Source: Candidatus Omnitrophota bacterium (GTDB taxonomy: Bacteria > Omnitrophota > Gorgyraeia > Aquiviventales > JACQRC01). Taken from it: DNA of 64,000 nt. The stretch spans positions 118-64,117 of the forward strand of contig JACQRC010000015.1 in NCBI GenBank assembly GCA_016206665.1. The letters run 5' to 3'. Of this stretch, positions 1 through 49,941 are shown piece after piece. Position numbers and translations under genes: made by a program. Position 1 is the first letter of the stretch. Each line of letters starts with the position of its first letter. The notes beneath the pieces are model-generated. The model did not search any database. It was not told the DNA's origin and worked only from the letters and a program-made list of their open reading frames with translations.

Positions 1-1104
1 TTGGGCCATAACCACCCGGCGGTCCAAGAGGCGATCGGACGGCAACTGCGCGACGGCCTGTCGTTTTCGCTGATGCATCCGCTGGAAGTGGAGGTATCGG
101 AGCGTTTGCTCTCATCGGTGCCATGGGCTGAGATGATCCGGTTTGGCAAATCGGGTTCCGATGTGACCTCCATCGCCGTGCGATTGGCCCGCGCCTCCAC
201 CGGGCGGGAGATGGTCCTGCACTGCGGCTACCACGGCTGGCATGATTGGTACGTGGCCTCGACCAGCCGGCGGCGCGGCATTCCCGAGGCTGTCGCGGCC
301 CTGCAAGCAGCGTTTTCCTACAACGATCTGGAAGCGTTACGACAGTTGTTCAGGACGTTCCGCAACCAGGTGGCGGCGGTCATCATGGAGCCGTACATTG
401 TGACCGAGCCCGCCGCGGGCTTTCTGGAGGGCGTGCGTGAGCTCACCCACGCCAACGGCGCGCTGCTCGTCTTCGATGAGGTGGTCTCCGGCTTCAGGTA
501 TCGGTGGGGCGGTGCGTACGAGTTGTTTGGCGTGACACCGGATCTGATCTGTTTCGGCAAGGCCATAGCCAACGGGTTGCCCCTGTCGGCCATCGCTGGT
601 CCCTCGACGATCATGGAGCTGCTCGAGGATGAGGTGTTTTTCTCCATGACCTTTGGCGGCGAGACGCTGTCGCTCGCCGCCTGCGCCGCGACATTGGGTG
701 AACTGCGCAAGCCCGAGGCCTTCCAGCGCATGTGGCAGGTGGGTCGCCAGCTCCAGGAGGGGCTGCAGGCCCTCGTGGCCAGCTACGGGCTGCAAGCTCA
801 CGTGCAGTGCCTGGGCCGGCCCCCGCGAACGCTGGTGGTCTTCCGCGATCGAGAGGGGAAGGAATCGCTCGCCTTGAAGAGTTTATTCCAGCAGGAAGTC
901 CTCAAACGCGGCATTCTGTTCAACGGTCTCCAGTTGCCGTCGGCGGCCCATACCGAGGCGGACATCGAGCTCACGTTAGGGGCGTTTCAGGAGGCGTTGG
1001 CGATTCTCCGTGAAGCGGTGCAGGACGACAGTGCTGACCGGCGGCTGGAGGGCACGCCCATTCAGCCGGTCTTCCGGCCCTTGCTCCCTGTGGAGCAGCG
1101 GTAG
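1..1104 (+). CDS. Class-III PLP aminotransferase (glutamate-1-semialdehyde aminomutase-like); 5' end cut by window edge
   Basis: The frame is open from nt 1 to TAG 1102-1104, and the TTG at nt 1 is not a real start. Motifs GHNHP, KSGSDV, DEVVSGFR and FGKAIANG (PLP-lysine region) are typical of class-III aminotransferases. Confidence 0.8.
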   Translation: MGHNHPAVQEAIGRQLRDGLSFSLMHPLEVEVSERLLSSVPWAEMIRFGKSGSDVTSIAVRLARASTGREMVLHCGYHGWHDWYVASTSRRRGIPEAVAALQAAFSYNDLEALRQLFRTFRNQVAAVIMEPYIVTEPAAGFLEGVRELTHANGALLVFDEVVSGFRYRWGGAYELFGVTPDLICFGKAIANGLPLSAIAGPSTIMELLEDEVFFSMTFGGETLSLAACAATLGELRKPEAFQRMWQVGRQLQEGLQALVASYGLQAHVQCLGRPPRTLVVFRDREGKESLALKSLFQQEVLKRGILFNGLQLPSAAHTEADIELTLGAFQEALAILREAVQDDSADRRLEGTPIQPVFRPLLPVEQR

Positions 1105-1108
1105 CCTC

Positions 1109-2161: not shown

Positions 2162-3233
2162 GATGGTCTCAAGACGGACAACGCGCAGCGGGGCGAGGGT
2201 CCTGATGAAGGTCGAAGGCGGCGGGCGTTTCGGCTTGGGGCATGTGGTGCGCTCTCTCGAGCTGGCGGCTGTGCTCAGGCGCTCCGGTGTCAGCATCGCG
2301 GGTTTTGCCTGCAATGACGATGCGGCCAGCCGGGCGAGGATTCGCGCCGCGGGCTATCCGTGTGACGTGTTGCCGATATCTCAGCGTGGAAGCTTGGTGC
2401 AGATGGTCGATCGCACCTCGGCGAATGCCATCGTGGTTGATCAACCGACTGACGCGGTGAGGGCATTCCGGGCATTACGGCGGGTACGACCCGGGCTGTT
2501 CTTGGCGGCGCTGGATCCTCCCGTGCCAGATGTGGCGGCCTTCGATGCGGTCATCACGCTGTTCCACCATGGGACGGCGCCACGCCCGGCCCGAACCACA
2601 GGCTATCACGAGGGAGTGGAGTTCGCCGTCCTTGGCTCGCAATTCTCCATGCGCCGCGCTCCACCGAACGGCCTCATAAAGGAGGTCAAAGAGATCTTGG
2701 TGTGCTTTGGCGGCACGGACCCGCAGCGGCTCACCGTGAAGGTCTTGCGTGCGCTGCAAAGAGGATTGCCAGGTACACCAACACTGCACATCGTGTTAGG
2801 GCCGGGATTGACCTTCGGCTCCGTAGTGCGGCAAGCGGCCCGTGACGGCGCCCTGCCGTATGAACTGCACACAGACGTCCATCTGATGTCCCGATTGATG
2901 GCCGGTTGCCAACTCGCCATTTGCAGCGGGGGCGCTACGCTGATGGAGCTCTGTTGCGTGGGATGTCCGGCGCTCGTCATCGCGCAGAATGAGGCCGAAG
3001 CGCGATTCGCCACCTATGTGAGCCGTCGGGGCGCCGCCCGCTACGTGGGGCCCGCGAGACGGGTGACAGAGCGAGAGATCCGCGCCGCGGTGCTGGCGAT
3101 GTGCGCAGCACCAGCCGTCCGACGGCGGCAGGCCGCACACGGCCAGCGACTCATTGATGGGCGCGGCACTCGGCGGACGGCGTCAATCCTGCTGAAGGAG
3201 TTGGAATGGAGTTTGCAAACACACAGTACCTGA
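2151..3233 (+). CDS. PseG/SpsG-like protein (GT-B fold, GT28 C-terminal domain; UDP-sugar hydrolase or transferase), copy 1
   Basis: N-terminal loop GGGRFGLGHVVRSLELA, CFGGTDP, and C-terminal SGGATLMELCCVGCPALVIAQNEAE resemble PseG/SpsG. The start is ambiguous among in-frame ATGs at 2151, 2154 and 2163. Confidence 0.7.
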   Translation: MMSEMVSRRTTRSGARVLMKVEGGGRFGLGHVVRSLELAAVLRRSGVSIAGFACNDDAASRARIRAAGYPCDVLPISQRGSLVQMVDRTSANAIVVDQPTDAVRAFRALRRVRPGLFLAALDPPVPDVAAFDAVITLFHHGTAPRPARTTGYHEGVEFAVLGSQFSMRRAPPNGLIKEVKEILVCFGGTDPQRLTVKVLRALQRGLPGTPTLHIVLGPGLTFGSVVRQAARDGALPYELHTDVHLMSRLMAGCQLAICSGGATLMELCCVGCPALVIAQNEAEARFATYVSRRGAARYVGPARRVTEREIRAAVLAMCAAPAVRRRQAAHGQRLIDGRGTRRTASILLKELEWSLQTHST

Positions 3234-4297
3234 CGCTGAACGGAAAGCGGGCGGTGGCGGACGGCGCTCACCGTGTTCCAAGCTACCAAGAGGCAAAAGG
3301 GCTGCCACCGCTGGTCGTAGACGATCTCTTACGGGTCCACTCGTTTCCCGAGAACCTCGCGCTCCTTGAGCGCTACCGACAGGAGGGCTATCAGCTGGTG
3401 CCGATCCGGCGTCGGCCGGAGCAAGAGCGACCCACCGACTCGCGATTTCCCGGTCGCATCCTGCTCGAGATTACGAGCAAGTGCAACATGAACTGCGTCA
3501 TGTGCCCACGGACGGCCCTGCGGCGGCCTCAACTCCACATGCCGAAGGACGTGGTGCTGCGCTGCATCGATGAGATTCACGCCCACGGTGTTGACGGCCT
3601 CTGGCTGTACAACCTCGGTGAGTCGACGTTGCATCCCCACTTCAAGGAGATCGTTGACTACTGCCATCAGAAGCACCTCGGATCGCTCTGGCTCAGCACC
3701 AACGGCCAGCACATCCCTGAGGAGATCATGGACACTCTCTTCCGCTCCCCGCTGACCTTTTTGAACTACTCGCTCAACGCCATGCGCGCGGAGACGTACC
3801 GTCTCATTTGTCCCACTGGCGACTACGACCGCCTCGTGGCGAATCTCGAACGGCTGTTGGCGAAGAAACGGTCCCAGGGGCGGATGGGCACACCGCCGTG
3901 GATCCGGATCCAGATGATCGAGCAGGCGCAGGTGGCTTCGGAGATTGATTGGTTCCTGACGAACTACGCGACGAAAGGTGAGCTGTTGAGCGTTAACGTG
4001 CTGGAAGCCTTCAACGAGAGTGTCGCCCAAAATGTGGGCTACGCCCAGTGTCGCGAACGGCGGCAGCGGACCCACTGCAATCGCATCGAACGCGGTGACT
4101 GCTTCATCTTTGCGGACGGGGAGGTCTCGTTCTGCGACACGGACTTTAATCACGAGATGTCCATCGGCAACGTCCATGACGCCGCGATCGAAGAAATCTG
4201 GAACGGCGGCCGCCACCGGCACTACACGTCGCTGAACGCGGCGGGCCGGCTGGATGAGGTCCCCATGTGCCGACAGTGCCTGGACTACGACTTGTAA
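3206..4297 (+). CDS. Radical SAM enzyme with C-terminal SPASM/twitch-like Cys cluster, type-1 copy A
   Basis: CxxxCxxC cluster in ITSKCNMNCVMCPR. C-terminal Cys-rich region is CNRIERGDCFIFADGEVSFCDTD...PMCRQCLDY. AAGGAG lies about 7 nt upstream of ATG 3206. It is clearly alignable by eye to the gene at 20447. Confidence 0.8.
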   Translation: MEFANTQYLTLNGKRAVADGAHRVPSYQEAKGLPPLVVDDLLRVHSFPENLALLERYRQEGYQLVPIRRRPEQERPTDSRFPGRILLEITSKCNMNCVMCPRTALRRPQLHMPKDVVLRCIDEIHAHGVDGLWLYNLGESTLHPHFKEIVDYCHQKHLGSLWLSTNGQHIPEEIMDTLFRSPLTFLNYSLNAMRAETYRLICPTGDYDRLVANLERLLAKKRSQGRMGTPPWIRIQMIEQAQVASEIDWFLTNYATKGELLSVNVLEAFNESVAQNVGYAQCRERRQRTHCNRIERGDCFIFADGEVSFCDTDFNHEMSIGNVHDAAIEEIWNGGRHRHYTSLNAAGRLDEVPMCRQCLDYDL

Positions 4298-4311: not shown

Positions 4312-5169
4312 ATGCGCGCGGTTCCTGAGGCAGCTCTACAGCAACATCTCAAGGAGTTGCGCGTCTATGGCTATACCCGCATTGAGCAATTTCTTGACAC
4401 GGCAGAGGTGCAGCGGCTCAAGGCCTTGGTGACCCGGTCTTATGAGGCGACCCGCCAGCTCCAGTATGCCGGCAGGCCCAACCGGGACGCCGCGGATCAG
4501 GTGGTCTATAATTTGCAGAACAAGGACAAGTATTTCATCGACATCCTGGATGACCCATTCATCAGCCGGGTGCTCATGACCATGTTGAACGATCCCTACT
4601 ACCGATTCTTGCCGTCCGATGTCCCCAATTACATCTTGAGCTACTATAATGCGCGGTCCAGCGGCGAGCGGCTCGATCTGCATATTGATTCGGTGATTCC
4701 CGCGCCGGGCGAGCGGACCTGGGCGATGCAAATCGCTTTTGTGCTGGATGACCAGACGCCCGAAAACGGCTGTACCGTCGTGGTGCCTGGTTCCCATCTA
4801 TCGGGCGCCTACACCGACCGAAGCCTGCAGAAGCTCGAGCCCATTCGGGCCCAGGCCGGGGATCTCGTCATGTGGGACAGCCGCCTATGGCATGGGACGA
4901 CGGCCAATGCGTCGGGACGGCCCCGCTGGGCGCTGATTGCCACCTTCGTCATGTGGTGGGTCAAGCAGACCATGCAGATCACCAGATCCCTGCCGGACGC
5001 GATGTACCAAACCCTGACCGACCGCCAAAAAGCCCTGCTGGGTTTTTGCGCCATTCCGCCTGTGGATGAAACGCAGCGCATCAACACCAAGTGCGGTTAC
5101 GACGCACTGTTGCCATCCGTAGAGGATTATCATCGTTGTCAGACGGCCCCATCGGCGGTCGAGGACTGA
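4312..5169 (+). CDS. Phytanoyl-CoA dioxygenase (PhyH)-family Fe(II)/2-oxoglutarate oxygenase
   Basis: ATG 4312 is directly preceded by GGGAGGAGAG. An HxD...H pattern (LDLHIDSVIP ... RLWHGTTAN) and the overall length fit the PhyH family. The track start 4267 is a less likely upstream extension. Confidence 0.75.
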   Translation: MRAVPEAALQQHLKELRVYGYTRIEQFLDTAEVQRLKALVTRSYEATRQLQYAGRPNRDAADQVVYNLQNKDKYFIDILDDPFISRVLMTMLNDPYYRFLPSDVPNYILSYYNARSSGERLDLHIDSVIPAPGERTWAMQIAFVLDDQTPENGCTVVVPGSHLSGAYTDRSLQKLEPIRAQAGDLVMWDSRLWHGTTANASGRPRWALIATFVMWWVKQTMQITRSLPDAMYQTLTDRQKALLGFCAIPPVDETQRINTKCGYDALLPSVEDYHRCQTAPSAVED

Positions 5170-5177
5170 GCGATCTC

Positions 5178-6413
5178 ATGCCGCAAACGAAACAGCGTCT
5201 GCTCATCTTGGGAGCCGGCGTCTATCAGATGCCGGCCATCGCCACCGCGAAGGCGCTGGGACTTCAGGTGATTGCGGTAGACGCGAACCCCGTGGCGCCC
5301 GGCTTCACCTTGGCAGATGTCTCCCGCGTCGTTGATGTGCGTGACATCGCCGGATGTCTCAAGGTCGCCAGAGGATTTCAGGTGGATGGGGTCGTATCCA
5401 TTTGCACGGAATCGGCCGTGGCCACGGTGGCGGCACTGGCGGAGGAACTGGGATTGCCCGGCGTCAGCCGCGCGGCCGCGCAAGCCGCCACGGATAAATT
5501 TGTGATGCGCAGCAGATGGGCCGCCACCGGATTGCCGGGGCCGGCCTTCGCTCAGGCAAGCACCCTCGCCGAGGCCGTGCCGGCGGCGCGAGAGATCGGC
5601 TATCCCGTGGTGGTCAAACCCGTTGACAACGCGGGCAGCCGCGGCGTCTCTCGGATCGACGTGGAGAGTGCACTGCCGGCGGCGTTCGACCGGGCGCTGA
5701 GCCAGTCGCTCAGCCGACGAGTGATCCTTGAGGAGTTCATGGATGGCGTCGAGGCAACGGTAGAATCCTTTACCTGGCAGGGGAAGACGCAGGTATTGGC
5801 GATGTCGGAGAAGGTGCGCATCCCGTTTCCCGCCTGCGTCTCAATCAGTCTGAGCTATCCACCGAGCTTTGCTGCCGAAGTCCAGCAGGCCATTCAGCAG
5901 GTGGTATGCCGGGCCATCAAGGCCTTGGGGATTGACCAGGGACCCACCCACACAGAAGTTCTGGTCACGTCTCGCGGGATCAAGCTGGTCGAGCTCGCCG
6001 CGCGCGGCGGCGGATTCGGCATTGTTCATCAGATCGTGCCGATCGTCTCAGGTGTCGATCTAGTTCGGGCCACGATTCAGGTGGCACTGGGATTGCAGCC
6101 GGACATAACACCGCAGTACGCCAGGGCGGCCGTCCTGCGCTTTTTCCAGCCGCAGGCCTTCGGAACCGTGCGCAGGATCCGCGGCGTCGAGGACGCAAAG
6201 CGGATGGAGGGGATCGTCGAGGTCGTGATGGAGGTCAAGCCGGGGCAGTTGCTGGGGCCCATTACGCGCGACGGCGAACGGCCGGGCTACTTGATCGCCT
6301 CGGCGCCGACGCGCGAGCTGGCCTTGCAGTATGCGGATGCCGCGGAACGTGCGGTTCGTTTCGAGGTCGTCGCCGCCGAACAGGCGACGGCCGGCGCGGC
6401 GGGCCGGCCATGA
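5178..6413 (+). CDS. ATP-grasp family ligase
   Basis: ATG 5178 comes after an 8-nt spacer. There is an N-terminal Rossmann-like RLLILGAGVYQ, then GYPVVVKPVDNAGSRGV, LEEFMDG and VELAARGGG, which are typical ATP-grasp elements. Confidence 0.8.
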   Translation: MPQTKQRLLILGAGVYQMPAIATAKALGLQVIAVDANPVAPGFTLADVSRVVDVRDIAGCLKVARGFQVDGVVSICTESAVATVAALAEELGLPGVSRAAAQAATDKFVMRSRWAATGLPGPAFAQASTLAEAVPAAREIGYPVVVKPVDNAGSRGVSRIDVESALPAAFDRALSQSLSRRVILEEFMDGVEATVESFTWQGKTQVLAMSEKVRIPFPACVSISLSYPPSFAAEVQQAIQQVVCRAIKALGIDQGPTHTEVLVTSRGIKLVELAARGGGFGIVHQIVPIVSGVDLVRATIQVALGLQPDITPQYARAAVLRFFQPQAFGTVRRIRGVEDAKRMEGIVEVVMEVKPGQLLGPITRDGERPGYLIASAPTRELALQYADAAERAVRFEVVAAEQATAGAAGRP

Positions 6414-7195
6414 TCATTGACGGCCACACGCATATTCATCCGCACGCGGACGGCTGGGGGGGCCGGTATGACGCGTCGCTGGCGACGCTGGTCGAAGCTT
6501 TGACCCAAGGGCCTGTCCAGCGGGCGGTGGTGTTGCCGATCGCGCCGAAGGTGTCGAACGATTTCATCGCCGAAAGCTGTCGCCGTTATCCAGACCAGCT
6601 GATCGGTTTCGCGTCGGTGGATCCCATGGCAGCGACGGCGGGGATCGAGGAACTGGAGCGGGCCGTGGGCCAGCTGAAGCTGAAGGGGTTGAAGCTGCAT
6701 CCCCGTCTCCAGGGCTTCGGACGCAACGAATATACGCAGCTGGTGCCGCTGATTCAGCGGGCGGCTCGCCTCAACGTGCCGGTGCTCATTGACGCCTTTC
6801 CCTACGGCAAAGAGCTCTTCGAGACGCGGGCGGTGGAGCTCATCAATGCGCTGGCGGAGGCGGTGCCCGATGCCAACCTGATCATGGCGCACGCCGGCGG
6901 CTACCAGCTGTTTGAGGCTTTCCTGGTGGCCAAGGCGCACCGCAACGTCTTTCTGGACATCTCCTATACGCTGCCCTATTTTCGCGGCAGCTCGATCGAG
7001 ACCGATCTGGGATTCGTCATCCGGAAGATGCATGCGCAGCGCATCATCTACGGTTCAGATCATCCAGAACAGCCCTTGGCCGCGGCCTTCACGGAGACGC
7101 GGGTGGTACTTGAGCGGTACGGTCTGACACCGAAGCAGATGGATGCCGTCCTCGGAGAGAACCTCGCCCCGCTGGTGAATGGGGTCAGTCTATGA
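6410..7195 (+). CDS. Amidohydrolase_2-type metal-dependent TIM-barrel hydrolase/decarboxylase
   Basis: ATGA overlap with the upstream stop. The N-terminal metal site is MIIDGHTHIHPH, with later LKLHP, MAHAGG and YGSDHP. Confidence 0.7.
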   Translation: MIIDGHTHIHPHADGWGGRYDASLATLVEALTQGPVQRAVVLPIAPKVSNDFIAESCRRYPDQLIGFASVDPMAATAGIEELERAVGQLKLKGLKLHPRLQGFGRNEYTQLVPLIQRAARLNVPVLIDAFPYGKELFETRAVELINALAEAVPDANLIMAHAGGYQLFEAFLVAKAHRNVFLDISYTLPYFRGSSIETDLGFVIRKMHAQRIIYGSDHPEQPLAAAFTETRVVLERYGLTPKQMDAVLGENLAPLVNGVSL

Positions 7196-7815
7196 CGCCG
7201 CAAGAACGGACGGAGACGGTCAAACGCTACGCCGACCGGCAGGCCCGGTGGGGTGCGACGGCGCAGACGTTGGGGTGGCGGGATGCGGCCCAGCAGGCCT
7301 TGCGCTTTGCCGTGCTCGCGGAGGTCGGCGACCTGAGCGGTCGGTCGGTCCTCGACGTTGGCTGTGGCTTTGGCGATTTTTATGGCTACCTGCTCGCGCA
7401 AGGCAGGCGGCCGTCATTGTACGTGGGGGTGGATGTTGCGCCCAGTCTCCTGCAGGTGGCGCGCGAGCGGCACCCGGGCATCCGGTTTGAAGAGCGGGAC
7501 ATTGTGACCCAGCCGATGGCCGAGCAGTTTGACTACGTCGTCGAATCGGGCGTGCTCAACCACCGCCTGCAGGATAATGAGCAGGCCGCGCGGGCAATGT
7601 TGGAAGCCATGTACCGTCTGAGCCGGCGAGGCATGGCCGCCAACCTCATGAGCTTCCAGGTCGATTACACGGAACCGCATTTGTACTATTACGACCCGGA
7701 AGCCACGATGCGCTATTGCAGAACCTTGAGCCGGTTCGTCACGCTCCGTCATGACTATCCACTTTACGAGTTCACGATCTATCTCTATCGCCAACCGCTG
7801 GGGGGTGCGCAGTGA
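7192..7815 (+). CDS. Class-I SAM-dependent methyltransferase (1 of 7)
   Basis: ATGA overlap. Motif I is SVLDVGCGFGDF, with the acidic post-I residue in YVGVDVAP. Confidence 0.75.
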   Translation: MTPQERTETVKRYADRQARWGATAQTLGWRDAAQQALRFAVLAEVGDLSGRSVLDVGCGFGDFYGYLLAQGRRPSLYVGVDVAPSLLQVARERHPGIRFEERDIVTQPMAEQFDYVVESGVLNHRLQDNEQAARAMLEAMYRLSRRGMAANLMSFQVDYTEPHLYYYDPEATMRYCRTLSRFVTLRHDYPLYEFTIYLYRQPLGGAQ

Positions 7816-8570
7816 ACGTGGCGGGAACCATCGTCCAGTATCTGCGGCGTAACCGGGTCTCCACGACCGAGGTTGCCGACGCCTTGGGCAAAACGGGTGT
7901 GTTGCCCGGCCTATTACCCATCACCCCCCACGAGTTTAGAGTGGGGAGGGCTCGCTGCATCTTTACCGCACACGATTCCAATCATGACCTGCATGACCAG
8001 ATTCGGCAGGTGCGCGAGGGCGACGTGGTCATCGTCTTCGCCCACGCCTGCGAGGGGCGCGCCCTGTTGGGAGATCTCGTGGCCCGGTATCTGCTGCTCT
8101 ACCGAGGCGCCGAGGCCCTGGTGGTTGACGGACTGGTGCGCGATGCCGCCCGCTTGCGTCGGGAGCGCTATCCGGTGTGGGCGCGCGGGGCAACTCCGCT
8201 GGGCTGCCATAATGTACCGGCTGCGCCGTTTCCGGCGGAGCAGGCAGCCGCCCTGCGTCGGGCGATGGATGGTGGGATCGCCATCTGTGACGACGGTGGG
8301 GTCACCGTCATCGGAGCTCATCAGCTCACGACAGACATCTTGGAGCGCTTAAAACTGATCGAGCTCCAGGAAGACATCTGGTATTACTGCCTCAACACTC
8401 TCAAATGGGATACCAAGCGCATTGTCTGTGACAAGGAGTATCTCAAACAGCGCGAGCTGCTGCCGCCCGCCTACCGCGACCGCTTCGATCAAGGCGGACA
8501 GCCGCTGAAGGCGGTGCGATCGAAGGGCTCTCGAGCAGCCAAGCAGCTCGTGAAGAGCCGCTCACCATGA
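7812..8570 (+). CDS. RraA-like protein (4-hydroxy-4-methyl-2-oxoglutarate aldolase / oxaloacetate decarboxylase family) with C-terminal extension
   Basis: GTG 7812 sits in a GTGA overlap. The core GDVVIVFAHACEGRALLGDLVARYLLLYRGAEALVVDGLVRDAARL...PVWARGATP matches the RraA-fold pattern. An extra tail of about 90 aa is not typical. Confidence 0.6.
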   Translation: MNVAGTIVQYLRRNRVSTTEVADALGKTGVLPGLLPITPHEFRVGRARCIFTAHDSNHDLHDQIRQVREGDVVIVFAHACEGRALLGDLVARYLLLYRGAEALVVDGLVRDAARLRRERYPVWARGATPLGCHNVPAAPFPAEQAAALRRAMDGGIAICDDGGVTVIGAHQLTTDILERLKLIELQEDIWYYCLNTLKWDTKRIVCDKEYLKQRELLPPAYRDRFDQGGQPLKAVRSKGSRAAKQLVKSRSP

Positions 8571-10534
8571 CCGGGCGCATCATCCTATTTGAACGCCTGA
8601 CCCGCTGGCATCTGCCGGTGGTCGCATGGTACCACCTCCGCGGGGACTCCATCTACTACCGGAGCTGCGCGGCTGGCTGCGAGCCGGCGCGCTGGGGCGG
8701 AGCCATCGCCCAGTTCGAGGGCACGCCACCGCTCTACCGGGGTGTCAATGGAGCCACCGATCAGGCCTTCGATCATATTGAAGCGCTCTATGCACGGGCA
8801 TACGCACAGCAGGGGATCATCCGGTTGCTGCGCAATCTCTATGGCAGCGATGAGATCCATCTGGCGTTCAAAAAGGCGCTGCTCAAGGAGCTGTCGGAGT
8901 TTTATTATTGCCGGCTGTTAGCCGAGCGGATCCAGCGCGCCCATCCGCAGGGGCGCCACATTTTCTTGGTGCCGGCTGACCTGGGCCAACCGGAGAGGCA
9001 ACGCGCCTGGGCCGACGTCCTGCCAGCCGCGGCGATGGGCGAGACGCATCTTCCGCCTTGGTCATTTCCCTGCTGGGTCCGCCTCGCCGGCTTGATGCGG
9101 TCGCTGCAGGAGCGGTTGGTGGCAGCAGGGATTCTGGTACGCGTGCTGGCGCGTGCCATCCGGGGCCTGCTACGGCCGTCACGGCAGCCTTCGGTGCACA
9201 CGTACGACGTCGCGCTCACCATCGTGGCCTGGCGCCGGCAGCTGCACGACAATTTACGCTCGGCGGGTTTCCTCATTGATGGGCGATTGATCACCAGGGA
9301 TCGCGTCCTGTTGGTACCGCTGATCCGATTGACGCGACGCCAGATCGCGTGGCTGGCCGGCCGCGCCTTGCAGGTGAGCCCCACGCCTCTGCGGGCGTCT
9401 CGAGCCACCTGCCGCCAGGCGCTGGGAGCTGCCCTGCGGTTGATCGGCCAGCTCCCTCGGCAGGCACCGTGGCTGCTCAGGACCGCGGCGCATCTCATCG
9501 AAGCGTTCTGCATCTGGCGGGCGTTTACGGAGCGATACCGGATCGGTCGCTTCGTTACCCATGCGGATCATGGCATCGGCCATATCGCGAGAAATATCCT
9601 CTTGAAGCAGCAGGGGTCAGCGGTGTGGTCGTACGTGGATTCCGGCAATCTGACCTATCTCCATCCCCATGCCGAAGCGGCGGCTCCACGCTACGAGCTC
9701 TGGGGCTTTCTCTACTATGATGTGATGGTGTGCTGGAATGCCGCCATGGTGCGGTACTTCCAGCGGCACCATCAGCATGTCGAGCGGTACGAAATCATCG
9801 GATGTCTGTGGTCCGAGCATGTGCGGTTGCTTCGCGAGGGGACTCTTCCCATGGCGGTCCGGCAGCAGCTGCTGACGCGGGGCTGGCGTCCGGGACAGCC
9901 GGTTGTGGCCTGGTTTCCCACCTGGTATCAGGCCGACAATCTGACGGATCATCATGACGGCCTGGCGTTCGCGCAAGCCATCCAACAGCTGCTGACGGAG
10001 CTGCCCGACGTGTTTATGGTGGTGAAGGAGAAGCACCAGCGATGGCTGTTTGCCAAGCACCCGGTCTATGGCGGTCCTGAGGCCCGACGCATCTACGAGG
10101 CCTACGAGCAGCTCGAGCGCCACCCACGGTGCTGGTTGCCCGGTCCTACCGCCAACGCCTCCGAGATCGTCGCCGCCAGCGACCTCGTCATCTCCTTTCC
10201 TTTTACATCAGTGACGGTGGAGGCGATGGCTGGCCGGGTCAAGGCCATCTATTATGGCCCGCACGGCAGATACCGCGGTGCCCATTACGATCGGATCCCT
10301 GGCATGGTCGTCCACAGTGGCGATGAGCTGAAACACCGCGTCGCCCAGTTGCTGCATGAAACGTCTGCCGATGAGTATGACCGGTACTTGACGCAGTATG
10401 CGAAGGGCGAGGTCGATCCATTTCTCGACGGACAGGCGCTCACGCGGTTCCGCACGTTGTTGGCGGGCGCAGCGCGTGACGACACACCGGAGGCCCTGCC
10501 ATCGGCCCTGGCGGAAGCGAGAGGATCGTCATGA
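8567..10534 (+). CDS. Large uncharacterised protein with GT-B-like C-terminal half (candidate glycosyl/ulosonate transferase), copy A
   Basis: ATGA overlap; 655 aa. I recognise no N-terminal family. The C-terminal segment EIVAASDLVISFPFTSVTVEAMAGRVKAIYYGP has the shape of the donor-binding Rossmann half of GT-B enzymes and aligns by eye with the 23761 protein. Confidence 0.45.
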   Translation: MTGRIILFERLTRWHLPVVAWYHLRGDSIYYRSCAAGCEPARWGGAIAQFEGTPPLYRGVNGATDQAFDHIEALYARAYAQQGIIRLLRNLYGSDEIHLAFKKALLKELSEFYYCRLLAERIQRAHPQGRHIFLVPADLGQPERQRAWADVLPAAAMGETHLPPWSFPCWVRLAGLMRSLQERLVAAGILVRVLARAIRGLLRPSRQPSVHTYDVALTIVAWRRQLHDNLRSAGFLIDGRLITRDRVLLVPLIRLTRRQIAWLAGRALQVSPTPLRASRATCRQALGAALRLIGQLPRQAPWLLRTAAHLIEAFCIWRAFTERYRIGRFVTHADHGIGHIARNILLKQQGSAVWSYVDSGNLTYLHPHAEAAAPRYELWGFLYYDVMVCWNAAMVRYFQRHHQHVERYEIIGCLWSEHVRLLREGTLPMAVRQQLLTRGWRPGQPVVAWFPTWYQADNLTDHHDGLAFAQAIQQLLTELPDVFMVVKEKHQRWLFAKHPVYGGPEARRIYEAYEQLERHPRCWLPGPTANASEIVAASDLVISFPFTSVTVEAMAGRVKAIYYGPHGRYRGAHYDRIPGMVVHSGDELKHRVAQLLHETSADEYDRYLTQYAKGEVDPFLDGQALTRFRTLLAGAARDDTPEALPSALAEARGSS

Positions 10535-11628
10535 AGACTGTCACGATCACCGGCCTTTCCGTTATGCCATTGACTCCGAGCCAGCACGGCGCGTGGGATC
10601 GGTTCGCGGCCGAGTCGGATACGGCGTGGTTCTGGCATACCACCGCATGGCTGACCTATGCGCGCGCGTTCACCGCAGAGCGATTCATGGACGACCTATC
10701 TTTTATGATCTACAACGGGCCGGAGCTGTGCGCCATCTGCCCGGTGTTCCTGGAAGAGGAGTACGGCATCCGGCGCTTCGCCTGCGTGGGCGAACCGCTG
10801 CCCTTTCCCGCCTACAAGCCTGGCCTGGGCGCGGGCGCGCAATGTCGGGTGCTGGATCTGTACATCGAGACGCTGGCCCGGCTGGCCGAGGAGCACCAGG
10901 CGGCCTACGTATCGGTCCGCGTGCCGCCGGTGGCGGCCGCCTCTCGCGAGAACGCGGCCCTGCCAGTCAACCCGCTGTTGCCATACGGATTTTTTGATCT
11001 AACGGTGCTGACGCAGGTGGTCGATCTGCGGCAGCCCCGCGAGACGCTGTGGGCACAGATCCGCAAAGGCCACAAATCAGACATCAAACGCGGCGGCAAG
11101 TCGTGCGCGGTGACGGTGTGGGATCAGGCGACGATCACGCTGGAGAAATTCCGTCAGTACCAAGAGCTGCACCGGAAGGATGCGGGACGGGCCACCCGCT
11201 CGCAGCGGACCTTCGATCTCATGCTCGACTGGGTGCGAGACGGCCAGGCGATGCTGACCGAAGCGCACATCGGCGATCGTCCCATCGCCTTTGCCCTGGT
11301 GATGCGGTTCGGGGTGGGCGCGTACTACGGGTCGGGCTGCAAGGACCCGGACCATCTCTCTGTGCCGGCCTCCCATCTGATTCAGTGGGAGGCGATGCTC
11401 TGGCTCAAAGCGCACGGCACGCAGTTCTACGATCTCGGGCTGCAGCATTTGGCCCCACAATGGTTTCACGTCCCGACCGCCAAAGAGCTCGGCATCTCCA
11501 GCTTCAAGCGGGGGTTTGGCGGCATGACGGTACCGCTGGCCACCGCTGAGCGGTTCTATGCATTGGACTACCTCAAGGAAACCTTTGCCCGTCGAATGGA
11601 GGCGCATGTCAGCTCATCTCGCGTTTGA
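10531..11628 (+). CDS. FemAB-like / GNAT-fold peptidyl- or aminoacyl-transferase family protein
   Basis: ATGA overlap. The layout and motifs (WDRFAAESDTAWFWHTTAW, IRKGHKSDIKRG, GAYYGSGC, HLIQWEAMLWLKAHG, FKRGFGG) resemble FemAB-family proteins found in EPS loci. Confidence 0.6.
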   Translation: MKTVTITGLSVMPLTPSQHGAWDRFAAESDTAWFWHTTAWLTYARAFTAERFMDDLSFMIYNGPELCAICPVFLEEEYGIRRFACVGEPLPFPAYKPGLGAGAQCRVLDLYIETLARLAEEHQAAYVSVRVPPVAAASRENAALPVNPLLPYGFFDLTVLTQVVDLRQPRETLWAQIRKGHKSDIKRGGKSCAVTVWDQATITLEKFRQYQELHRKDAGRATRSQRTFDLMLDWVRDGQAMLTEAHIGDRPIAFALVMRFGVGAYYGSGCKDPDHLSVPASHLIQWEAMLWLKAHGTQFYDLGLQHLAPQWFHVPTAKELGISSFKRGFGGMTVPLATAERFYALDYLKETFARRMEAHVSSSRV

Positions 11629-12646
11629 GCCGCGCGTGCGGTGGCGCGATTGCCTGGGAGCATCCCGCGTGACGTGGGAGTTGCTCGACGCGCAGGCGAG
11701 CGCGCTCATCGGCTGTCCGGGAGTGGTGGTCCCCTCAATCAGGGTGGCACTCGCCTGGCTCCTGGAGGCGTCAGGGTTCGTGCGGTGGCGTGACCAAGTG
11801 CTGGTGCCGCGCTTCCTCGGGCGCTGCCTCTTGACGCCGATCCTGCGCCACGCACTGCCGGTGGAGTCGCTCACCTCCTCGACGCGGCTGATGCTCGTCG
11901 TGCATCAATTCGGATGTGACCAGCAGCTCGACGAGATTTGGCAGATGTGCCGGCAGCACGGCATCGCCTATGTCGAGGACAGCCCCGGCGGGTTGCGCGA
12001 AACCGAAGGTCTGGGCCCGGGTTCATGGGGCCGCTTTGTCAGTTTGTCGAAGGTGCTGCCGATTCTGCGCGGGGCCTTTTTCATCACCGAAGATGAGCGG
12101 TGGCTCGCGCTGATGCGGCAGCGCCGGCAGGCGAGCCACCCGGCGGCGTGGCTGCTTTTTGGATGGCTGATGCGCAGCCGCCACCATGTGCACGCACCGC
12201 ACGACTCGCCCTGGGGCGATACGCTGACCGAGTTGCAGCTCATGGCGGCCGGCGGTCATGCCCTGCACCGCGTCAACATCCAGCGAGGTCTGGCCCAGCT
12301 CGCGCAGTATAGCCGCTTGGCCCGCCAGCGTCTGGCACGTGCCGCCGCTGCCTTAGGTGATCACGCGGTGTTGCCGGCGACGACGCGGCTCCCATATGTG
12401 GTACCCATCATGGCCCCCGAGGACTCGGCCGCGATGGAGGCGTCTCTGCGTGCGCACGGCTTCGATGCCATGCGTTACCATTTCGATCGCCGCCACCATC
12501 TGCTGGAGCCGGATTATCAGCAGGTGTACTTGTTGCCGCTCAATCCGACGATACCGCAGACGCGGTTTGAGGCGGTGCTCGGGGATCTCGAGCGGATTGT
12601 GCGCACGCAGCCGGCAGATGCCCTGGTGGAGAGCCATGGCCGTTGA
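11606..12646 (+). CDS. Divergent DegT/DnrJ/EryC1-like putative PLP-dependent enzyme
   Basis: ATG 11606 is preceded by GGAGG. LVVHQFGCDQQLDEIWQMCRQHGIAYVEDSPGG and a candidate PLP lysine in SLSKVLPILRGAFF recall sugar aminotransferases. The protein is divergent and the call is tentative. Confidence 0.4.
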   Translation: MSAHLAFEPRVRWRDCLGASRVTWELLDAQASALIGCPGVVVPSIRVALAWLLEASGFVRWRDQVLVPRFLGRCLLTPILRHALPVESLTSSTRLMLVVHQFGCDQQLDEIWQMCRQHGIAYVEDSPGGLRETEGLGPGSWGRFVSLSKVLPILRGAFFITEDERWLALMRQRRQASHPAAWLLFGWLMRSRHHVHAPHDSPWGDTLTELQLMAAGGHALHRVNIQRGLAQLAQYSRLARQRLARAAAALGDHAVLPATTRLPYVVPIMAPEDSAAMEASLRAHGFDAMRYHFDRRHHLLEPDYQQVYLLPLNPTIPQTRFEAVLGDLERIVRTQPADALVESHGR

Positions 12647-16514: not shown

Positions 16515-16531
16515 TACTTCGCGAGGGCAGG

Positions 16532-18591: not shown

Positions 18592-18617
18592 CGCGGGGGA
18601 GCTGGAGAGCACACGCC

Positions 18618-20420: not shown

Positions 20421-20446
20421 ACCGGACCGCCGGCCAAGGAGACATC

Positions 20447-21544: not shown

Positions 21545-21558
21545 GCGGAGAGCGAGCG

Positions 21559-49931: not shown

Positions 49932-49941
49932 CCAGACGACC

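Follow-up and report, generated by a model that had tools for sequence, protein, structure and literature searches.

The window analysed here, a 64,000-nucleotide stretch of contig JACQRC010000015.1 from a Candidatus Omnitrophota bacterium, carries five consecutive genes encoding a PhyH-type dioxygenase, an ATP-grasp ligase, an amidohydrolase, a methyltransferase and an RraA-like protein, downstream of a nonulosonic acid (NulO) synthase gene. The ATP-grasp, amidohydrolase, methyltransferase and RraA-like genes form a conserved module found in at least 80 bacterial and archaeal genomes, which most likely makes an unusual organic acid and attaches it, through an amide bond, to an amine of a surface sugar resembling sialic acid.

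Organization of the locus

The genes of the region, all on the forward (+) strand, are as follows.

1..1104, +, class-III aminotransferase, GSA-aminomutase-like (Pfam Aminotran_3 2e-42; 5′ end cut by the contig end)
1109..2161, +, NeuB/PseI-type nonulosonic acid synthase (Pfam NeuB 1.6e-91, and SAF)
2163..3233, +, PseG-like nucleotide-sugar hydrolase (NCBIfam PseG 105 bits, cutoff 153.6; weak Glyco_tran_28_C match)
3206..4297, +, radical SAM/SPASM enzyme, an accessory gene (Pfam Radical_SAM and SPASM)
4312..5169, +, PhyH-family Fe(II)/2-oxoglutarate dioxygenase (Pfam PhyH 1.6e-22, 81.3 bits, cutoff 22)
5178..6413, +, L-amino-acid-ligase (LAL)-type ATP-grasp carboxylate-amine ligase (Pfam ATP-grasp_4 64.1 bits, cutoff 27; LAL_C2 74.5, cutoff 29.4)
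6410..7195, +, PF04909 TIM-barrel amidohydrolase-superfamily enzyme (Pfam Amidohydro_2 2.3e-28, 100.2 bits, cutoff 26.4)
7192..7815, +, small class-I SAM-dependent methyltransferase (Pfam Methyltransf_25/12/31/11; Methyltransf_25 50.5 bits, cutoff 27)
7812..8570, +, long-form RraA-fold protein, HMG/CHA-aldolase type (Pfam RraA-like 4.7e-20, 72.8 bits, cutoff 24.5)
8567..10534, +, PFTS-motif polysaccharide biosynthesis protein (NCBIfam TIGR04417 PFTS_polysacc 145 bits, cutoff 100)
10531..11628, +, FemAB-like (Acetyltransf_6) protein (Pfam Acetyltransf_6 1.4e-10; weak FemAB match)
11558..12646, +, putative PLP-dependent enzyme (weak DegT match, 0.0023; start uncertain)
12357..13709, +, GNAT acetyltransferase, Acetyltransf_9 type (Pfam Acetyltransf_9 2.6e-14; start uncertain)

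All five cassette genes are real and intact, with family assignments above the Pfam gathering thresholds in five cases out of five, catalytic residues that are kept, and GC3 values of 0.73–0.79 that support coding. The PhyH gene starts with the ATG at 4312, preceded by GGGGGAGGAG, and the ATP-grasp gene with the ATG at 5178. Stop–start overlaps of the ATGA/GTGA type are present at 6410, 7192, 7812 and 8567, and a further, fifth overlap lies at 10531. The five families, both starts and the four ATGA/GTGA overlaps had been given in an earlier note on this DNA and are borne out by Pfam and by a check of the start codons; its gene list holds for the five genes and omitted the radical SAM/SPASM gene (3206–4297) between the NeuB/PseG-like pair and PhyH. 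The recurrence of the ATP-grasp/amidohydrolase/methyltransferase/RraA set in different phyla puts the arrangement far beyond chance. Within this window the cassette is a mosaic of two lineages, and its parts therefore need not share one substrate. The cassette and its neighbours are embedded in an LPS/EPS-type locus that exceeds 60 kb.

Upstream, the truncated aminotransferase scores 352 bits against NCBIfam PRK06209, under the cutoff for this truncated copy. Such genes accompany the module in 28% of loci, and the order AKR-AT3-NeuB is found again in six loci (L013, L016, L022, L036, L089, L090). The likely start of the NeuB/PseI-type synthase is the ATG at 1109, just 3′ of the aminotransferase stop; its NCBIfam scores (NeuB_NnaB 373 bits, PseI 335 bits) are each slightly below cutoff, and it is 58–64% identical to the NeuB proteins adjoining ATP-grasp in L003–L005, L089 and L090. 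The PseG-like gene, the start of which is uncertain (ATG 2151, 2154 or 2163), has counterparts placed between NeuB and ATP-grasp in 48% of module loci. For the radical SAM/SPASM enzyme an NCBIfam equivalog was not found; homologues with 43–48% identity occur in L010, L013 and L019.

Downstream, the start of the PFTS gene overlaps the RraA stop (ATGA). Its product, which also gives a weak BFO_1060 glycosyltransferase match, is a candidate transferase for the modified sugar. PFTS genes are present in L006 and L008 too, and L004 and L089 carry at this position a protein of about 650 residues without a Pfam match. The FemAB-like protein (NCBIfam FemAB_IMCC1989 57.8 bits, under cutoff) is 45–51% identical to genes of L004 and L089 and is possibly an aminoacyl-transferase that extends the substituent. 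The putative PLP enzyme is 37% identical to an L004 gene annotated PLP_IMCC1989 (Pfam), and the L004 counterpart of the GNAT acetyltransferase is 35% identical.

The RraA-like protein

The RraA-like protein is the signature gene of the module and falls into a long-form subfamily that is small and sharply bounded (only 41 representative clusters at E ≤ 1e-30). The best Foldseek match of its model is the HMG/CHA aldolase 3NOJ (2.5e-14 over 232 columns, along the full length), with only 23% identity. In the alignment, residues G87-D88 and R110-D111 correspond to G101-D102 and R123-D124 of 3NOJ, and both motifs are invariant in the subfamily alignment. In the 3NOJ aldolase Arg-123 is essential and stabilizes the pyruvate enolate, and Asp-124 and Glu-199 are metal ligands (PMC5065237). 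The protein is a putative class II pyruvate aldolase or β-decarboxylase. Its best NCBIfam name is LigK (56 against a cutoff of 304.5), and the model of the RraA regulator gives 26 against 136. What had been taken for an extra C-terminal tail is for the most part not one: residues 174–228 form ordered helices with the subfamily-invariant motif IELQEDxWYYCLxTLKWDTKxIVCDKxYL, and only the last 20 or so residues (233–252) are window-specific and predicted to be disordered.

The other enzymes of the cassette

The best solved relative of the ATP-grasp protein is the L-amino-acid ligase BL00235 (3vot, 7e-32); BacD and DdaF are both among its matches, and an NCBIfam equivalog was not found. It is proposed to form an amide bond. 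The amidohydrolase has an AF2 model with pLDDT 95.6, and its residues K95, H97, H161 and D217 are shared by all of 35 homologues, H6 and H8 by nearly all. The nearest folds are the uncharacterized 3cjp and 3irs, the LigI-like 4i6k and LigW-type decarboxylases, the last showing that PF04909 includes decarboxylases; with 14–19% identity to any characterized fold, there is no informative relative, and the enzyme may be a hydrolase, lactonase, decarboxylase or hydratase. The methyltransferase carries motif I (VLDVGCGFG). Its top NCBIfam matches are the carboxyl O-methyltransferases Mtf2, BchM, Tam and BioC, all far below cutoff.

Eight orthologues of the PhyH protein all keep the facial triad H124-x-D126…H193 and an RW arginine. 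The nearest relatives of PhyH with a solved structure include kanamycin B dioxygenase and PDB 4xaa, which we take to be AviO1, an orthosomycin sugar oxygenase; the label ‘non-carbohydrate-type’ formerly given to the cassette is therefore inaccurate for PhyH. Nor is PhyH a full member: it is present in six of 50 well-flanked loci (12%), and also in L004, L007 and L089, and is an optional accessory rather than part of the core. The metal and catalytic residues of the PhyH and RraA-like proteins, whose loss had been named as evidence against a role in tailoring, are intact on alignment.

Recurrence across genomes

The RraA subfamily is carried by at least 80 species-level genomes, spread over Elusimicrobia, several proteobacterial classes, Verrucomicrobia, Planctomycetes, Leptospira, Nostoc, Bacteroidales, Clostridia and archaea. 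Carriers that can be cultivated include Colwellia asteriadis JCM 15608, Rubritalea marina DSM 17716, Leptospira adleri and Prevotella sp. P6B1. Locus statistics were drawn from 50 loci flanked on either side by 6 kb or more, from more than 12 phyla; because RraA motifs served as the seed of the genome scan, all co-occurrence figures presuppose that RraA is present. An ATP-grasp gene lies within 8 kb of RraA on the same strand in 48 of the 50 (96%), a PF04909 amidohydrolase in 78% and a small SAM methyltransferase in 64%. DegT is found in 64%, NeuB in 52% and Aminotran_1_2 in 30%. The module is described neither in the publications searched nor among the NCBIfam models.

Roughly one locus in two is an operon of the pseudaminic type (PseB-PseC-…-NeuB-PseG-module-CMP-transferase). 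Conserved synteny beside NeuB homologues, which the earlier note had proposed as a check, is thus found in other genomes. In nearly all other loci NeuB is missing and the module is paired with DegT, in some together with an ArnC-like GT2 (ArnC-like GT2-ATP-grasp-amidohydrolase-methyltransferase-RraA-[Aminotran_1_2]-DegT). A NeuB, PseG or CMP-transferase marker is missing from 24 of the 50 loci, while an amino-sugar or NulO marker (DegT, PseB, NeuB, PseG or CMP-transferase) is present on the same strand in 44; glycan contexts thus recur, rather than the exclusively non-glycan ones that would have spoken against a role in tailoring. The common element is therefore the sugar amine and not the keto-acid end.

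In locus L091 the RraA and ATP-grasp proteins are naturally fused (P0366) inside a Maf/flagellin pseudaminic-acid island, in the order Maf-PseB-PseC-PseF-amidohydrolase-fusion-methyltransferase-NeuB-…-flagellin. The Pse pathway is present there, and a PseH-like GNAT was not detected in the 15.7 kb contig. ATP-grasp lineages 54–63% identical to that of the window also occur without RraA, which is therefore not obligatory for the ligase. Among the 26 NeuB-type loci, a PseH-like GNAT and a PIG-L deacetylase are both missing nearby in 14, this window included; a PseH-like GNAT is kept in 11, and PIG-L is accompanied by one in five of six cases. These patterns fit a free or freed amine that is re-acylated, and the 11 loci that keep the GNAT imply that the acylated nitrogen may in places differ from the PseH position.

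Proposed function

The reading we prefer, at a probability of roughly 55%, is that a conserved and horizontally mobile module builds a tailored acid with which the ATP-grasp enzyme amidates a sugar amine, PhyH being an optional hydroxylase. In the scheme that we infer, substrates and order of steps included, the RraA-like enzyme would use HMG/CHA-aldolase chemistry, with a Mg2+-bound pyruvate enolate stabilized by R110, and make or shorten a 2-oxo acid, either through aldol addition or through β-decarboxylation/dehydration. This acid would be tailored by the amidohydrolase, working as a hydratase, a decarboxylase or a lactonase/esterase, and by the methyltransferase, which may be a carboxyl O-methyltransferase; class III or class I/II aminotransferases, present in many loci, may turn its 2-oxo group into an amine, and PhyH may hydroxylate the product. 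The LAL-type ATP-grasp enzyme would then activate the carboxylate as an acyl phosphate and couple it to the amine installed by PseC/DegT on a nucleotide-linked 4-amino-6-deoxyhexose. In NeuB-containing operons the acylated nitrogen would become N7 of a pseudaminic-type NulO. In this window the modified sugar would next pass to the PFTS protein, whose gene is translationally coupled to the cassette, and the FemAB-like, PLP and GNAT genes might extend or cap the substituent. The earlier note had suggested that an unusual acyl or amino-acid substituent is made and attached by the cassette, which agrees with the NeuB synteny, the intact residues, the fusion and these downstream genes.

The polarity of the ligase could also be reversed, although we consider this unlikely. 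The ATP-grasp enzyme would then activate a carboxylate of the sugar (C1 of a NulO or C6 of a uronic acid) and amidate it with a small amine made by RraA, the aminotransferase and the amidohydrolase acting as a decarboxylase. Such a route would suit the decarboxylases within PF04909 and the aminotransferases common in module loci (Aminotran_1_2 30%, Aminotran_3 28%). CMP activation and transfer, however, normally require a free C1 carboxylate, and the NeuB-less loci keep DegT, uronic or ulosonic acid genes not being identified there. The model for this chemistry is the C-terminal amidoligase of Cj1438, an ATP-grasp enzyme that makes amides on the C6 carboxylate of GlcA (PMC11800379), but Cj1438C is described as TupA-like whereas the window protein is LAL-type (LAL_C2, best PDB match 3vot).

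Less probable still is a remodelling of the keto-acid end, offered earlier as the other option and now disfavoured. Here the RraA-like aldolase would act on the 3-deoxy-2-ulosonic acid itself, by C3–C4 cleavage and re-formation that epimerizes C4, by NulO synthesis from pyruvate or by dehydration and decarboxylation, with the other genes acting later. As 4-hydroxy-2-oxo acids, NulOs fall within the substrate class of HMG/CHA aldolases; RraA adjoins NeuB in about half of the loci; and FlDet, a member of the RraA family, catalyses the dehydration and decarboxylation of a 2-keto-3-deoxy-hexarate derived from a sugar (PMC8563752). Against this stand the 24 loci without NeuB, PseG or CMP-transferase, the amino-sugar or NulO marker in 44 and DegT in 64%; the tightest partner of RraA is ATP-grasp (96%, and the fusion protein) and not NeuB. 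An unrelated small-molecule operon lying in a glycan locus by chance, whether a remnant of LigI/LigJ/LigK-type aromatic or keto-acid catabolism, a dipeptide-antibiotic pathway or a set in which the RraA-like protein is a non-enzymatic RNase E-type regulator, is very improbable and already largely refuted by synteny, with same-strand amino-sugar or NulO genes in 44 of 50 loci and a stop–start overlap that ties the cassette to the PFTS polysaccharide gene. A PF04909 enzyme with an RraA-like aldolase is the LigI/LigJ–LigK pairing of protocatechuate 4,5-cleavage, and LAL-type ATP-grasp enzymes such as the matched BacD and DdaF make dipeptide antibiotics. However, the LigK score, though the best NCBIfam name, and the regulator score are far below cutoff, there is no variation in the catalytic R-D and G-D motifs, and in the Pfam annotation of the window no ring-cleavage or transporter genes adjoin the cassette.

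Comparison with known systems

The RraA-like protein resembles the HMG/CHA aldolase LigK/ProA (3NOJ) in fold, length and G-D and R-D motifs, and LigK shares with the module the pairing of an RraA fold with PF04909 (LigI/LigJ). It differs in its low identity (23%) and in a subfamily-specific cysteine-rich C-terminal motif; the amidohydrolase is only 14–19% identical to LigI-/LigW-type structures, and the module context is glycan biosynthesis rather than aromatic catabolism. In nikkomycin and polyoxin biosynthesis a pyruvate aldolase and an aminotransferase yield a 4-hydroxy amino acid, which the ATP-grasp ligases NikS/PolG join through an amide bond to the amine of an amino-sugar acid. The aldolases of these pathways belong to the DmpG/HpaI type rather than to the RraA fold, and the product is a secreted antibiotic instead of a surface glycan; the resemblance is one of logic only, not of membership.

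Cj1438 of Campylobacter jejuni likewise forms an ATP-grasp amide on a surface-polysaccharide sugar, but its TupA-like domain is fused to a GT2 glycosyltransferase, an architecture unlike that of the window ligase, and it amidates capsular glucuronate by activating the sugar's own carboxylate and adding ethanolamine or serinol (PMC11800379), a polarity probably opposite to that of the module ligase. PtmG/PtmH (acetimidoyl and N-methyl groups) are similarly tailoring genes among NulO pathway genes that alter the N-substituent, although PtmG is described as an amidotransferase, a different enzyme family from ATP-grasp. The glycan Leg5GluMe7Ac occurs in Clostridium botulinum, a species with no record among the 80 RraA-subfamily matches listed; its N-methyl-glutamyl group is the kind of product that an ATP-grasp enzyme and a methyltransferase could make.

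In Shewanella oneidensis the NeuB/PseI-like SfmA is clustered (sfmABCDE) with the SAM methyltransferase SfmD and the ATP-grasp_4 ligase SfmE, and deletion of sfmE lowers the flagellin glycan mass (PMC3765264). The earlier claim that the families lie outside known NulO pathways is thus overstated for ATP-grasp and methyltransferase, which are genetically tied to this NulO flagellin glycan; RraA-like, PF04909 and PhyH genes are not reported there, and SfmD has 395 residues (PMC3765264), unlike the small module methyltransferase. In Clostridium difficile the type-B flagellin genes CDR20291_0244-0247 specify a ‘sulfonated peptidylamido-glycan’; the ATP-grasp protein CDR20291_0245, adjoined by a FemAB-like gene, is needed for the peptidylamido-sugar, and in ATP-grasp mutants the terminal amino sugar, Fuc3N, is left without its peptide-like cap (PMC5207246, PMC5207245). 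The combination of ATP-grasp (PF13535), FemAB-like protein and sugar aminotransferase parallels the ATP-grasp, FemAB-like and PLP genes of the window, whereas the sugar is a 3-amino-6-deoxyhexose and not a NulO, and an ornithine-cyclodeaminase-like gene replaces the RraA, PF04909 and methyltransferase genes. SfmE/SfmD, CDR20291_0245 and Leg5GluMe7Ac are thus precedents for the substituent chemistry proposed here.

Organization of the gene cassette and its surroundings

The window is a one-strand glycan supercluster with a GC content of approximately 65%. Its cassette comprises five genes, all of which exceed the Pfam gathering thresholds for the families, and lie at the coordinates, that the earlier note had given them.

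Genes of the cassette, with their Pfam assignments
4312–5169, + strand, PhyH
5178–6413, + strand, ATP-grasp_4 and LAL_C2
6410–7195, + strand, Amidohydro_2
7192–7815, + strand, class-I SAM methyltransferase
7812–8570, + strand, RraA-like (domain at residues 18–165 of 252)

A GGAGG ribosome-binding site precedes the PhyH start at 4312, and the ATP-grasp gene starts at the ATG at 5178, 8 nt past the PhyH stop. The ATGA/GTGA overlaps claimed previously at 6410, 7192, 7812 and 8567 are all seen, with a further one at 10531. Upstream lie a 5'-truncated class-III aminotransferase gene and a pair encoding a NeuB/PseI-type synthase and a PseG-like protein, together with a radical-SAM/SPASM gene (3206–4297) missing from the earlier note. 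Downstream are genes for a PFTS-motif polysaccharide protein (TIGR04417 at 145 bits, cutoff 100), a FemAB-like protein, a weak PLP/DegT-like protein and a GNAT. Beyond the GNAT come a PtmE-like CBS-nucleotidyltransferase, a dehydratase, two more NeuB homologues and a second radical-SAM/SPASM gene. The rest of the window encodes glycosyltransferases, three PMT_2 GT-C enzymes, a Wzy_C protein, a GT9 heptosyltransferase, an initiating Glycos_transf_4 enzyme and two asparagine-synthase-type glutamine amidotransferases (32851–34827 and 49783–51846), which might form uronamides elsewhere in the polymer, on its other sugars. The locus is a surface-polysaccharide locus of the LPS/EPS type.

Three NeuB paralogues are found inside 22 kb of the window (1010–2161, 18540–20420 and 21337–22653), the middle one fused to a CTP_transf_3 cytidylyltransferase. 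The PtmE-like protein (15905–17608) suggests a GDP-linked legionaminic-type route as well, and the locus probably makes more than one nonulosonic acid. Radical-SAM/SPASM genes adjoin NeuB homologues twice (3206–4297 and 20048–21544; another is at 29851–31320), similar genes recur in four other loci (L010, L013, L019 and L087), and in two more (L006 and L008) the module has B12-binding radical SAM genes beside it. A 2026 preprint (10.64898/2026.04.20.719630) reports that Magnetospirillum gryphiswaldense contains C10 'higher-carbon' ulosonic acids, activated with CMP, whose genetic origin is unknown; the radical-SAM genes might act in C-methylation or chain extension of the nonulosonic acid. A second recurrent cassette, encoding the PFTS-motif (TIGR04417), FemAB_IMCC1989-like and PLP_IMCC1989-like proteins, lies directly 3' of the module in the window (8567–12646), in L004 (17080–21185) and in L089 (13760–16816). 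The PFTS protein weakly matches the BFO_1060 glycosyltransferase family.

The cassette proteins

None of the five proteins reaches a curated NCBIfam cutoff, and no equivalog was found among these models. The RraA-like protein (Pfam, 72.8 bits against 24.5) gives an AF2 model with a pLDDT of 88.8, in which order extends to approximately residue 228. Foldseek matches this model best to the HMG/CHA aldolase structure 3NOJ (E 2.5e-14, 232 aligned columns), in agreement with an RraA-like alpha-beta-beta-alpha fold of some 230 aa that takes in the C-terminal helices. In the HMMER alignment to 3NOJ, G87-D88 falls on G101-D102 and R110-D111 on R123-D124, and both pairs are invariant in 19 subfamily sequences. 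In HMG/CHA aldolase Arg-123 is essential and stabilizes the pyruvate enolate, and Asp-124 and Glu-199 are metal ligands (PMC5065237). Three further invariant residues, E184, E187 and D188, lie at approximately the offset of Glu-199, a residue of the C-terminal helix, the HMMER alignment ending at residue 178/191. The 'extra C-terminal tail' described in the earlier note is not an additional domain; it is mainly the conserved C-terminal helical region of long-form, aldolase-type RraA proteins. This region carries the subfamily-invariant motif IELQEDxWYYCLxTLKWDTKxIVCDKxYL, and only about 20 residues (233–252) are window-specific and disordered. Cysteines C80, C132, C159 and C193 are invariant in the subfamily and C206 nearly so (alignment A1); C80 aligns with a cysteine of 3NOJ, and two of the other four fall in the C-terminal motif. 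A structural or redox metal site is possible. Neither equivalog for LigK/PcmE is reached (TIGR02798, 56 against 304.5; NF006731, 65.8 against 179), and the neighbours are all glycan genes, with no protocatechuate or gallate catabolic context. The RNase E regulator RraA (approximately 160 aa) is rejected as an identity for this 252-aa protein (NF006875, 26 against 136; TIGR01935, 26.7 against 123.8).

The ATP-grasp protein (ATP-grasp_4, 64.1 bits against 27; LAL_C2, 74.5 against 29.4) combines an ATP-grasp core with the C-terminal domain 2 of the L-amino-acid ligases (LALs), which by sequence places it in the LAL clade. Its closest solved relative is the LAL BL00235 (7e-32). It is not equivalent to characterized LALs, scoring 57.5 bits against 850 for the NCBIfam model of BacD and 51.1 against 840 for that of DdaF.

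The PhyH protein (PF05721, 81.3 bits, cutoff 22) is best matched among solved structures by 4xaa, and kanamycin B dioxygenase was also matched. The facial triad, H124-I-D126 and H193, aligns with those of 4xaa and SptF, and the motifs LH(I/L)DS, WH and RW are invariant across eight orthologues; the RW arginine is assigned as the 2OG C5-carboxylate residue by position only. Metal-binding residues, on which the earlier note had made its reading of the PhyH and RraA-like proteins depend, are retained and invariant in both, as the facial triad of PhyH and as D111 of the RraA-like protein.

Among 35 homologues of the amidohydrolase (PF04909, 100.2 bits against 26.4), K95, H97, H161 and D217 do not vary and H6 and H8 hardly do, which preserves the ligand set of the family (HxH on strand 1, His, and Asp on strand 8). 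The model (pLDDT 95.6) has the topology of a TIM barrel, (beta/alpha)8. The top Foldseek folds are the uncharacterized 3cjp and 3irs, and LigI-like 4i6k and the LigW/gamma-RSD/IDCase decarboxylases all show 14–19% identity; neither Foldseek on this high-confidence model nor NCBIfam, with zero matches, gave a reaction type or placed the protein in a characterized subgroup (LigI lactonase, LigJ hydratase or LigW/ACMSD/IDCase decarboxylases). Motif I of the methyltransferase is intact, and its best NCBIfam names are carboxyl O-methyltransferases, all below cutoff.

Distribution and synteny of the module

The module, in which PhyH is an optional accessory, was defined by the RraA motif QED[IVL]W[YF][YF]C with a LAL-type ATP-grasp gene on the same strand no more than 8 kb away. 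In the window the motif reads ELQEDIWYYC, and the ATP-grasp gene lies 1.4 kb upstream of RraA on the same strand. Two RraA-subfamily motifs, scanned against 185,579 species genomes, gave 81 matches, of which 80 were kept. All locus ORFs were clustered and neighbours counted in the 50 loci with at least 6 kb either side of RraA; as the scan was seeded on RraA motifs, these frequencies are conditional on its presence.

Neighbours of the RraA-like gene (percentage of 50 loci)
ATP-grasp, 96
PF04909 amidohydrolase, 78
Methyltransferase, 64
DegT/PseC aminotransferase, 64
NeuB, 52
PseG-like, 48
CMP-transferase, 42
PseB, 32
Aminotran_1_2, 30
Aminotran_3, 28
Aldo-keto reductase, 24
PIG-L deacetylase, 14
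PhyH, 12

Synteny is the decisive evidence for the module. The ATP-grasp gene lies within 8 kb of RraA in 48 of the 50 loci, and the ATP-grasp, amidohydrolase and methyltransferase genes always share its strand. Conservation beside NeuB in other genomes, a check proposed in the earlier note, is observed in about half of the loci. Two NeuB operon types recur: type A, PseB-PseC-AKR-AT3-NeuB-PseG-ATP-grasp-amidohydrolase-methyltransferase-RraA-(PhyH)-(AT1/2)-CMP-transferase, and type B, NeuB-(AT1/2)-ATP-grasp-RraA-methyltransferase-amidohydrolase-PseG-PIG-L. An Elusimicrobiota locus reads rSAM-NeuB-PseG-like-ATP-grasp-amidohydrolase-methyltransferase-RraA-CMP-transferase, and one from Rhodospirillales has the same core with PhyH. 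Companion aminotransferases draw the names GntC/GntE (guanitoxin) only at scores far short of the cutoff, and these names carry no weight here.

The RraA homologues are all approximately 236 aa long and 55–70% identical. They form a small subfamily with a sharp boundary: an exhaustive search of 1.84 billion representative proteins gave 41 clusters at E≤1e-30. Carriers span Elusimicrobia, Alpha-, Beta- and Gammaproteobacteria, Campylobacterota, Myxococcota, Bdellovibrionota, Verrucomicrobia, Planctomycetes, Acidobacteria, Gemmatimonadales, Leptospira, Nostoc, Bacteroidota (including rumen/gut Bacteroidales and Prevotella), Clostridia and two archaeal lineages.

Any NeuB, PseG or CMP-transferase marker is absent from 24 of the 50 loci, nearly all of which keep DegT. 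An example order is GT2-ATP-grasp-amidohydrolase-methyltransferase-RraA-(AT1/2)-DegT, where the GT2 resembles the polyprenyl-phosphate glycosyltransferases PgfS and ArnC; such loci suggest an N-acylated amino sugar on a lipid carrier. Coupling of a NeuB-less module to DegT is seen in L015, L025, L030, L035, L039, L064, L068 and L072 (positions approximately 6000–13000 in each), several of which also contain an ArnC/PgfS-like GT2; the hosts are Betaproteobacteria, Azospirillum and Bacteroidota.

In one locus the two signature proteins are joined. P0366 (L091, 6052–7884, on a 15.8 kb Logan contig from SRR32206252) is a 610-aa single-ORF fusion of an N-terminal RraA-like protein to a LAL-type ATP-grasp. 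The order Maf-PseB-PseC-CMP-transferase-amidohydrolase-fusion-methyltransferase-NeuB-SDR-AKR-PseG-like-flagellin-flagellin places it in a Maf-type flagellin glycosylation island with two flagellin genes nearby; a PseH-like GNAT was not detected on this contig.

Mosaic origin of the cassette

ATP-grasp homologues (approximately 51–68% identical) also directly follow NeuB and a PseG-like gene in L003–L005, L089 and L090, loci on metagenomic contigs that lack RraA and have a class I/II aminotransferase at its position, alongside a PF04909 gene and a methyltransferase. Several of these loci also contain an Aminotran_3 gene, and L004 and L089 a FemAB-like gene and PhyH. The window ATP-grasp, amidohydrolase and methyltransferase are 54–68% identical to their counterparts in L003–L005. 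Its RraA and PhyH instead resemble those of L010 and L013 (61–67% identity), two loci where the ATP-grasp and amidohydrolase share only about 30–42% identity with the window proteins. By these sequence comparisons the cassette is a mosaic of two lineages, and inheritance of the five genes as one unit is rejected. Two NeuB paralogues are present per operon in L089 (4722–9049) and L090 (4733–9019), separated by a 250–272-aa protein without a Pfam match and an Aminotran_3 gene.

Relation to the pseudaminic acid pathway

In the canonical pathway PseH acetylates the PseC amine ahead of PseG, PseI and PseF (SugarBase preprint). The Pse enzymes flanking the window cassette are a PseI-like NeuB (335 against 340.25) and a PseG-like protein (105 against 153.55), and the contig ends upstream. 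Related loci show PseB-PseC-…-NeuB-PseG-module-CMP-transferase, and from synteny PseB, PseC and an aldo-keto reductase are expected beyond the contig end. No PseH-like GNAT was found across the 64 kb window by tblastn with a limited query set, the method used for small GNATs throughout. Among 26 NeuB-type module loci, 14, including the window, have neither a PseH-like GNAT nor PIG-L in reach, five have both, six the GNAT only and one PIG-L alone. This pattern is compatible with, and no proof of, acylation by the ATP-grasp enzyme of a nitrogen left free or freed by deacetylation. A universal replacement of PseH by the ATP-grasp enzyme is rejected, as 11 of the 26 loci keep a PseH-like GNAT.

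Proposed function

We suggest that the module makes a small acid, which the LAL-type ATP-grasp enzyme would link as an amide to a sugar nitrogen. This general role is given a probability of about 0.55 and any single step of the mechanism a much lower one, all functional statements being drawn from families, residues and context. The association is one-sided: RraA is nearly always near the ATP-grasp gene and sometimes fused to it, but close relatives of the window ATP-grasp are also encoded where RraA is absent, as would fit a role for RraA in providing or preparing a substrate of the ligase. Through chemistry of the class-II pyruvate-aldolase or decarboxylase kind, the RraA-like enzyme would form the acid, a small 2-oxo or hydroxy compound. 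This might then be tailored by the methyltransferase and the PF04909 enzyme, with transamination, or hydroxylation by PhyH, possibly added in some loci, before the ATP-grasp enzyme couples it to the sugar. In the window, the FemAB-like, PLP and GNAT proteins and the PFTS protein could extend, cap and transfer the product. A more specific version, of low probability, is that the ATP-grasp enzyme installs an undescribed branched or hydroxylated (amino-)dicarboxylic acyl group where PseH would place an acetyl, for instance a pyruvate-aldol-derived 4-hydroxy-4-methyl-glutamate- or glutarate-type acid, possibly methyl-esterified.

The earlier note had offered two options, a cassette that builds and attaches an acyl or amino-acid substituent or one that remodels the keto-acid end of the sugar. 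The former is favoured by the DegT/PseC amine common to the loci and by the ATP-grasp fusion. Remodelling of the keto-acid has a precedent in FlDet, an RraA-family enzyme that acts on a sugar keto-acid; however, the element common to the contexts is a sugar aminotransferase of the DegT/PseC type and not an ulosonic acid, and the NeuB-less loci together with the fusion make direct action there doubtful. The ligase might also work with reverse polarity, activating a sugar carboxylate as in Cj1438C, which we consider unlikely, if slightly less so than keto-acid remodelling. That the cassette is an operon of catabolism or antibiotic synthesis with no tie to the glycan locus, or that its RraA is regulatory, is contradicted by both context and motifs and is very improbable indeed.

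Significance and comparison with known systems

Nonulosonic acids cap flagella, S-layers, capsules and LPS, where their N-substituents influence charge and both phage and immune recognition. To our knowledge, genes have yet to be assigned for most of the unusual N-acyl groups that structural chemistry has revealed. The long-form RraA motif and a LAL-type ATP-grasp gene, with or without PF04909 and methyltransferase genes, define a genetic signature. It is carried by at least 80 species-level genomes, which probably produce an N-substituent other than acetyl. Cultivable carriers include Colwellia asteriadis JCM 15608 (L034), Pseudoalteromonas sp. HM-SA03 (L036), Rubritalea marina DSM 17716 (L045), Leptospira adleri (L053), L. 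ainazelensis (L044), Nostoc sp. C117 (L049) and Prevotella sp. P6B1 (L086). If confirmed, the proposed role would take the aldolase chemistry of the RraA fold beyond catabolism into glycan biosynthesis, and the ligase could be used to make modified bacterial sialic-acid analogues chemo-enzymatically. Were the dicarboxylic-acyl reading true, it would mean a new, widespread class of pseudaminic-type nonulosonic acids and N-acyl amino sugars, carried by Leptospira, rumen/gut Bacteroidales/Prevotella, cyanobacteria and archaea among others, and the first biosynthetic glycan-assembly role for RraA-fold and PF04909 enzymes.

A literature search combining ATP-grasp, RraA or amidohydrolase with nonulosonic, pseudaminic or legionaminic acid returned only the Shewanella and C. 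difficile cases described below, and no report or curated model was found of an RraA-fold or PF04909 enzyme in nonulosonic acid or amino-sugar biosynthesis, or of the four-gene module. A V. tapetis match concerned achromobactin, a Leptospira 'amidohydrolase' is CbiZ, and a paper on the Vibrionaceae nab cluster mentions none of the module families.

ATP-grasp genes have been tied genetically to the decoration of nonulosonic acids or amino sugars twice, as SfmE in Shewanella (PMC3765264) and CDR20291_0245 in C. difficile (PMC5207246; PMC5207245), and amino-acyl nonulosonic acids such as Leg5GluMe7Ac are known structurally. The type-B 'peptidylamido-glycan' locus of C. difficile, in which a FemAB-like gene lies beside an ATP-grasp gene that mutants show to be required, parallels the FemAB/PLP/GNAT/PFTS set of the window. 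We rate the module as a variant of known N-substituent tailoring of nonulosonic acids and amino sugars, and not as a categorically new system.
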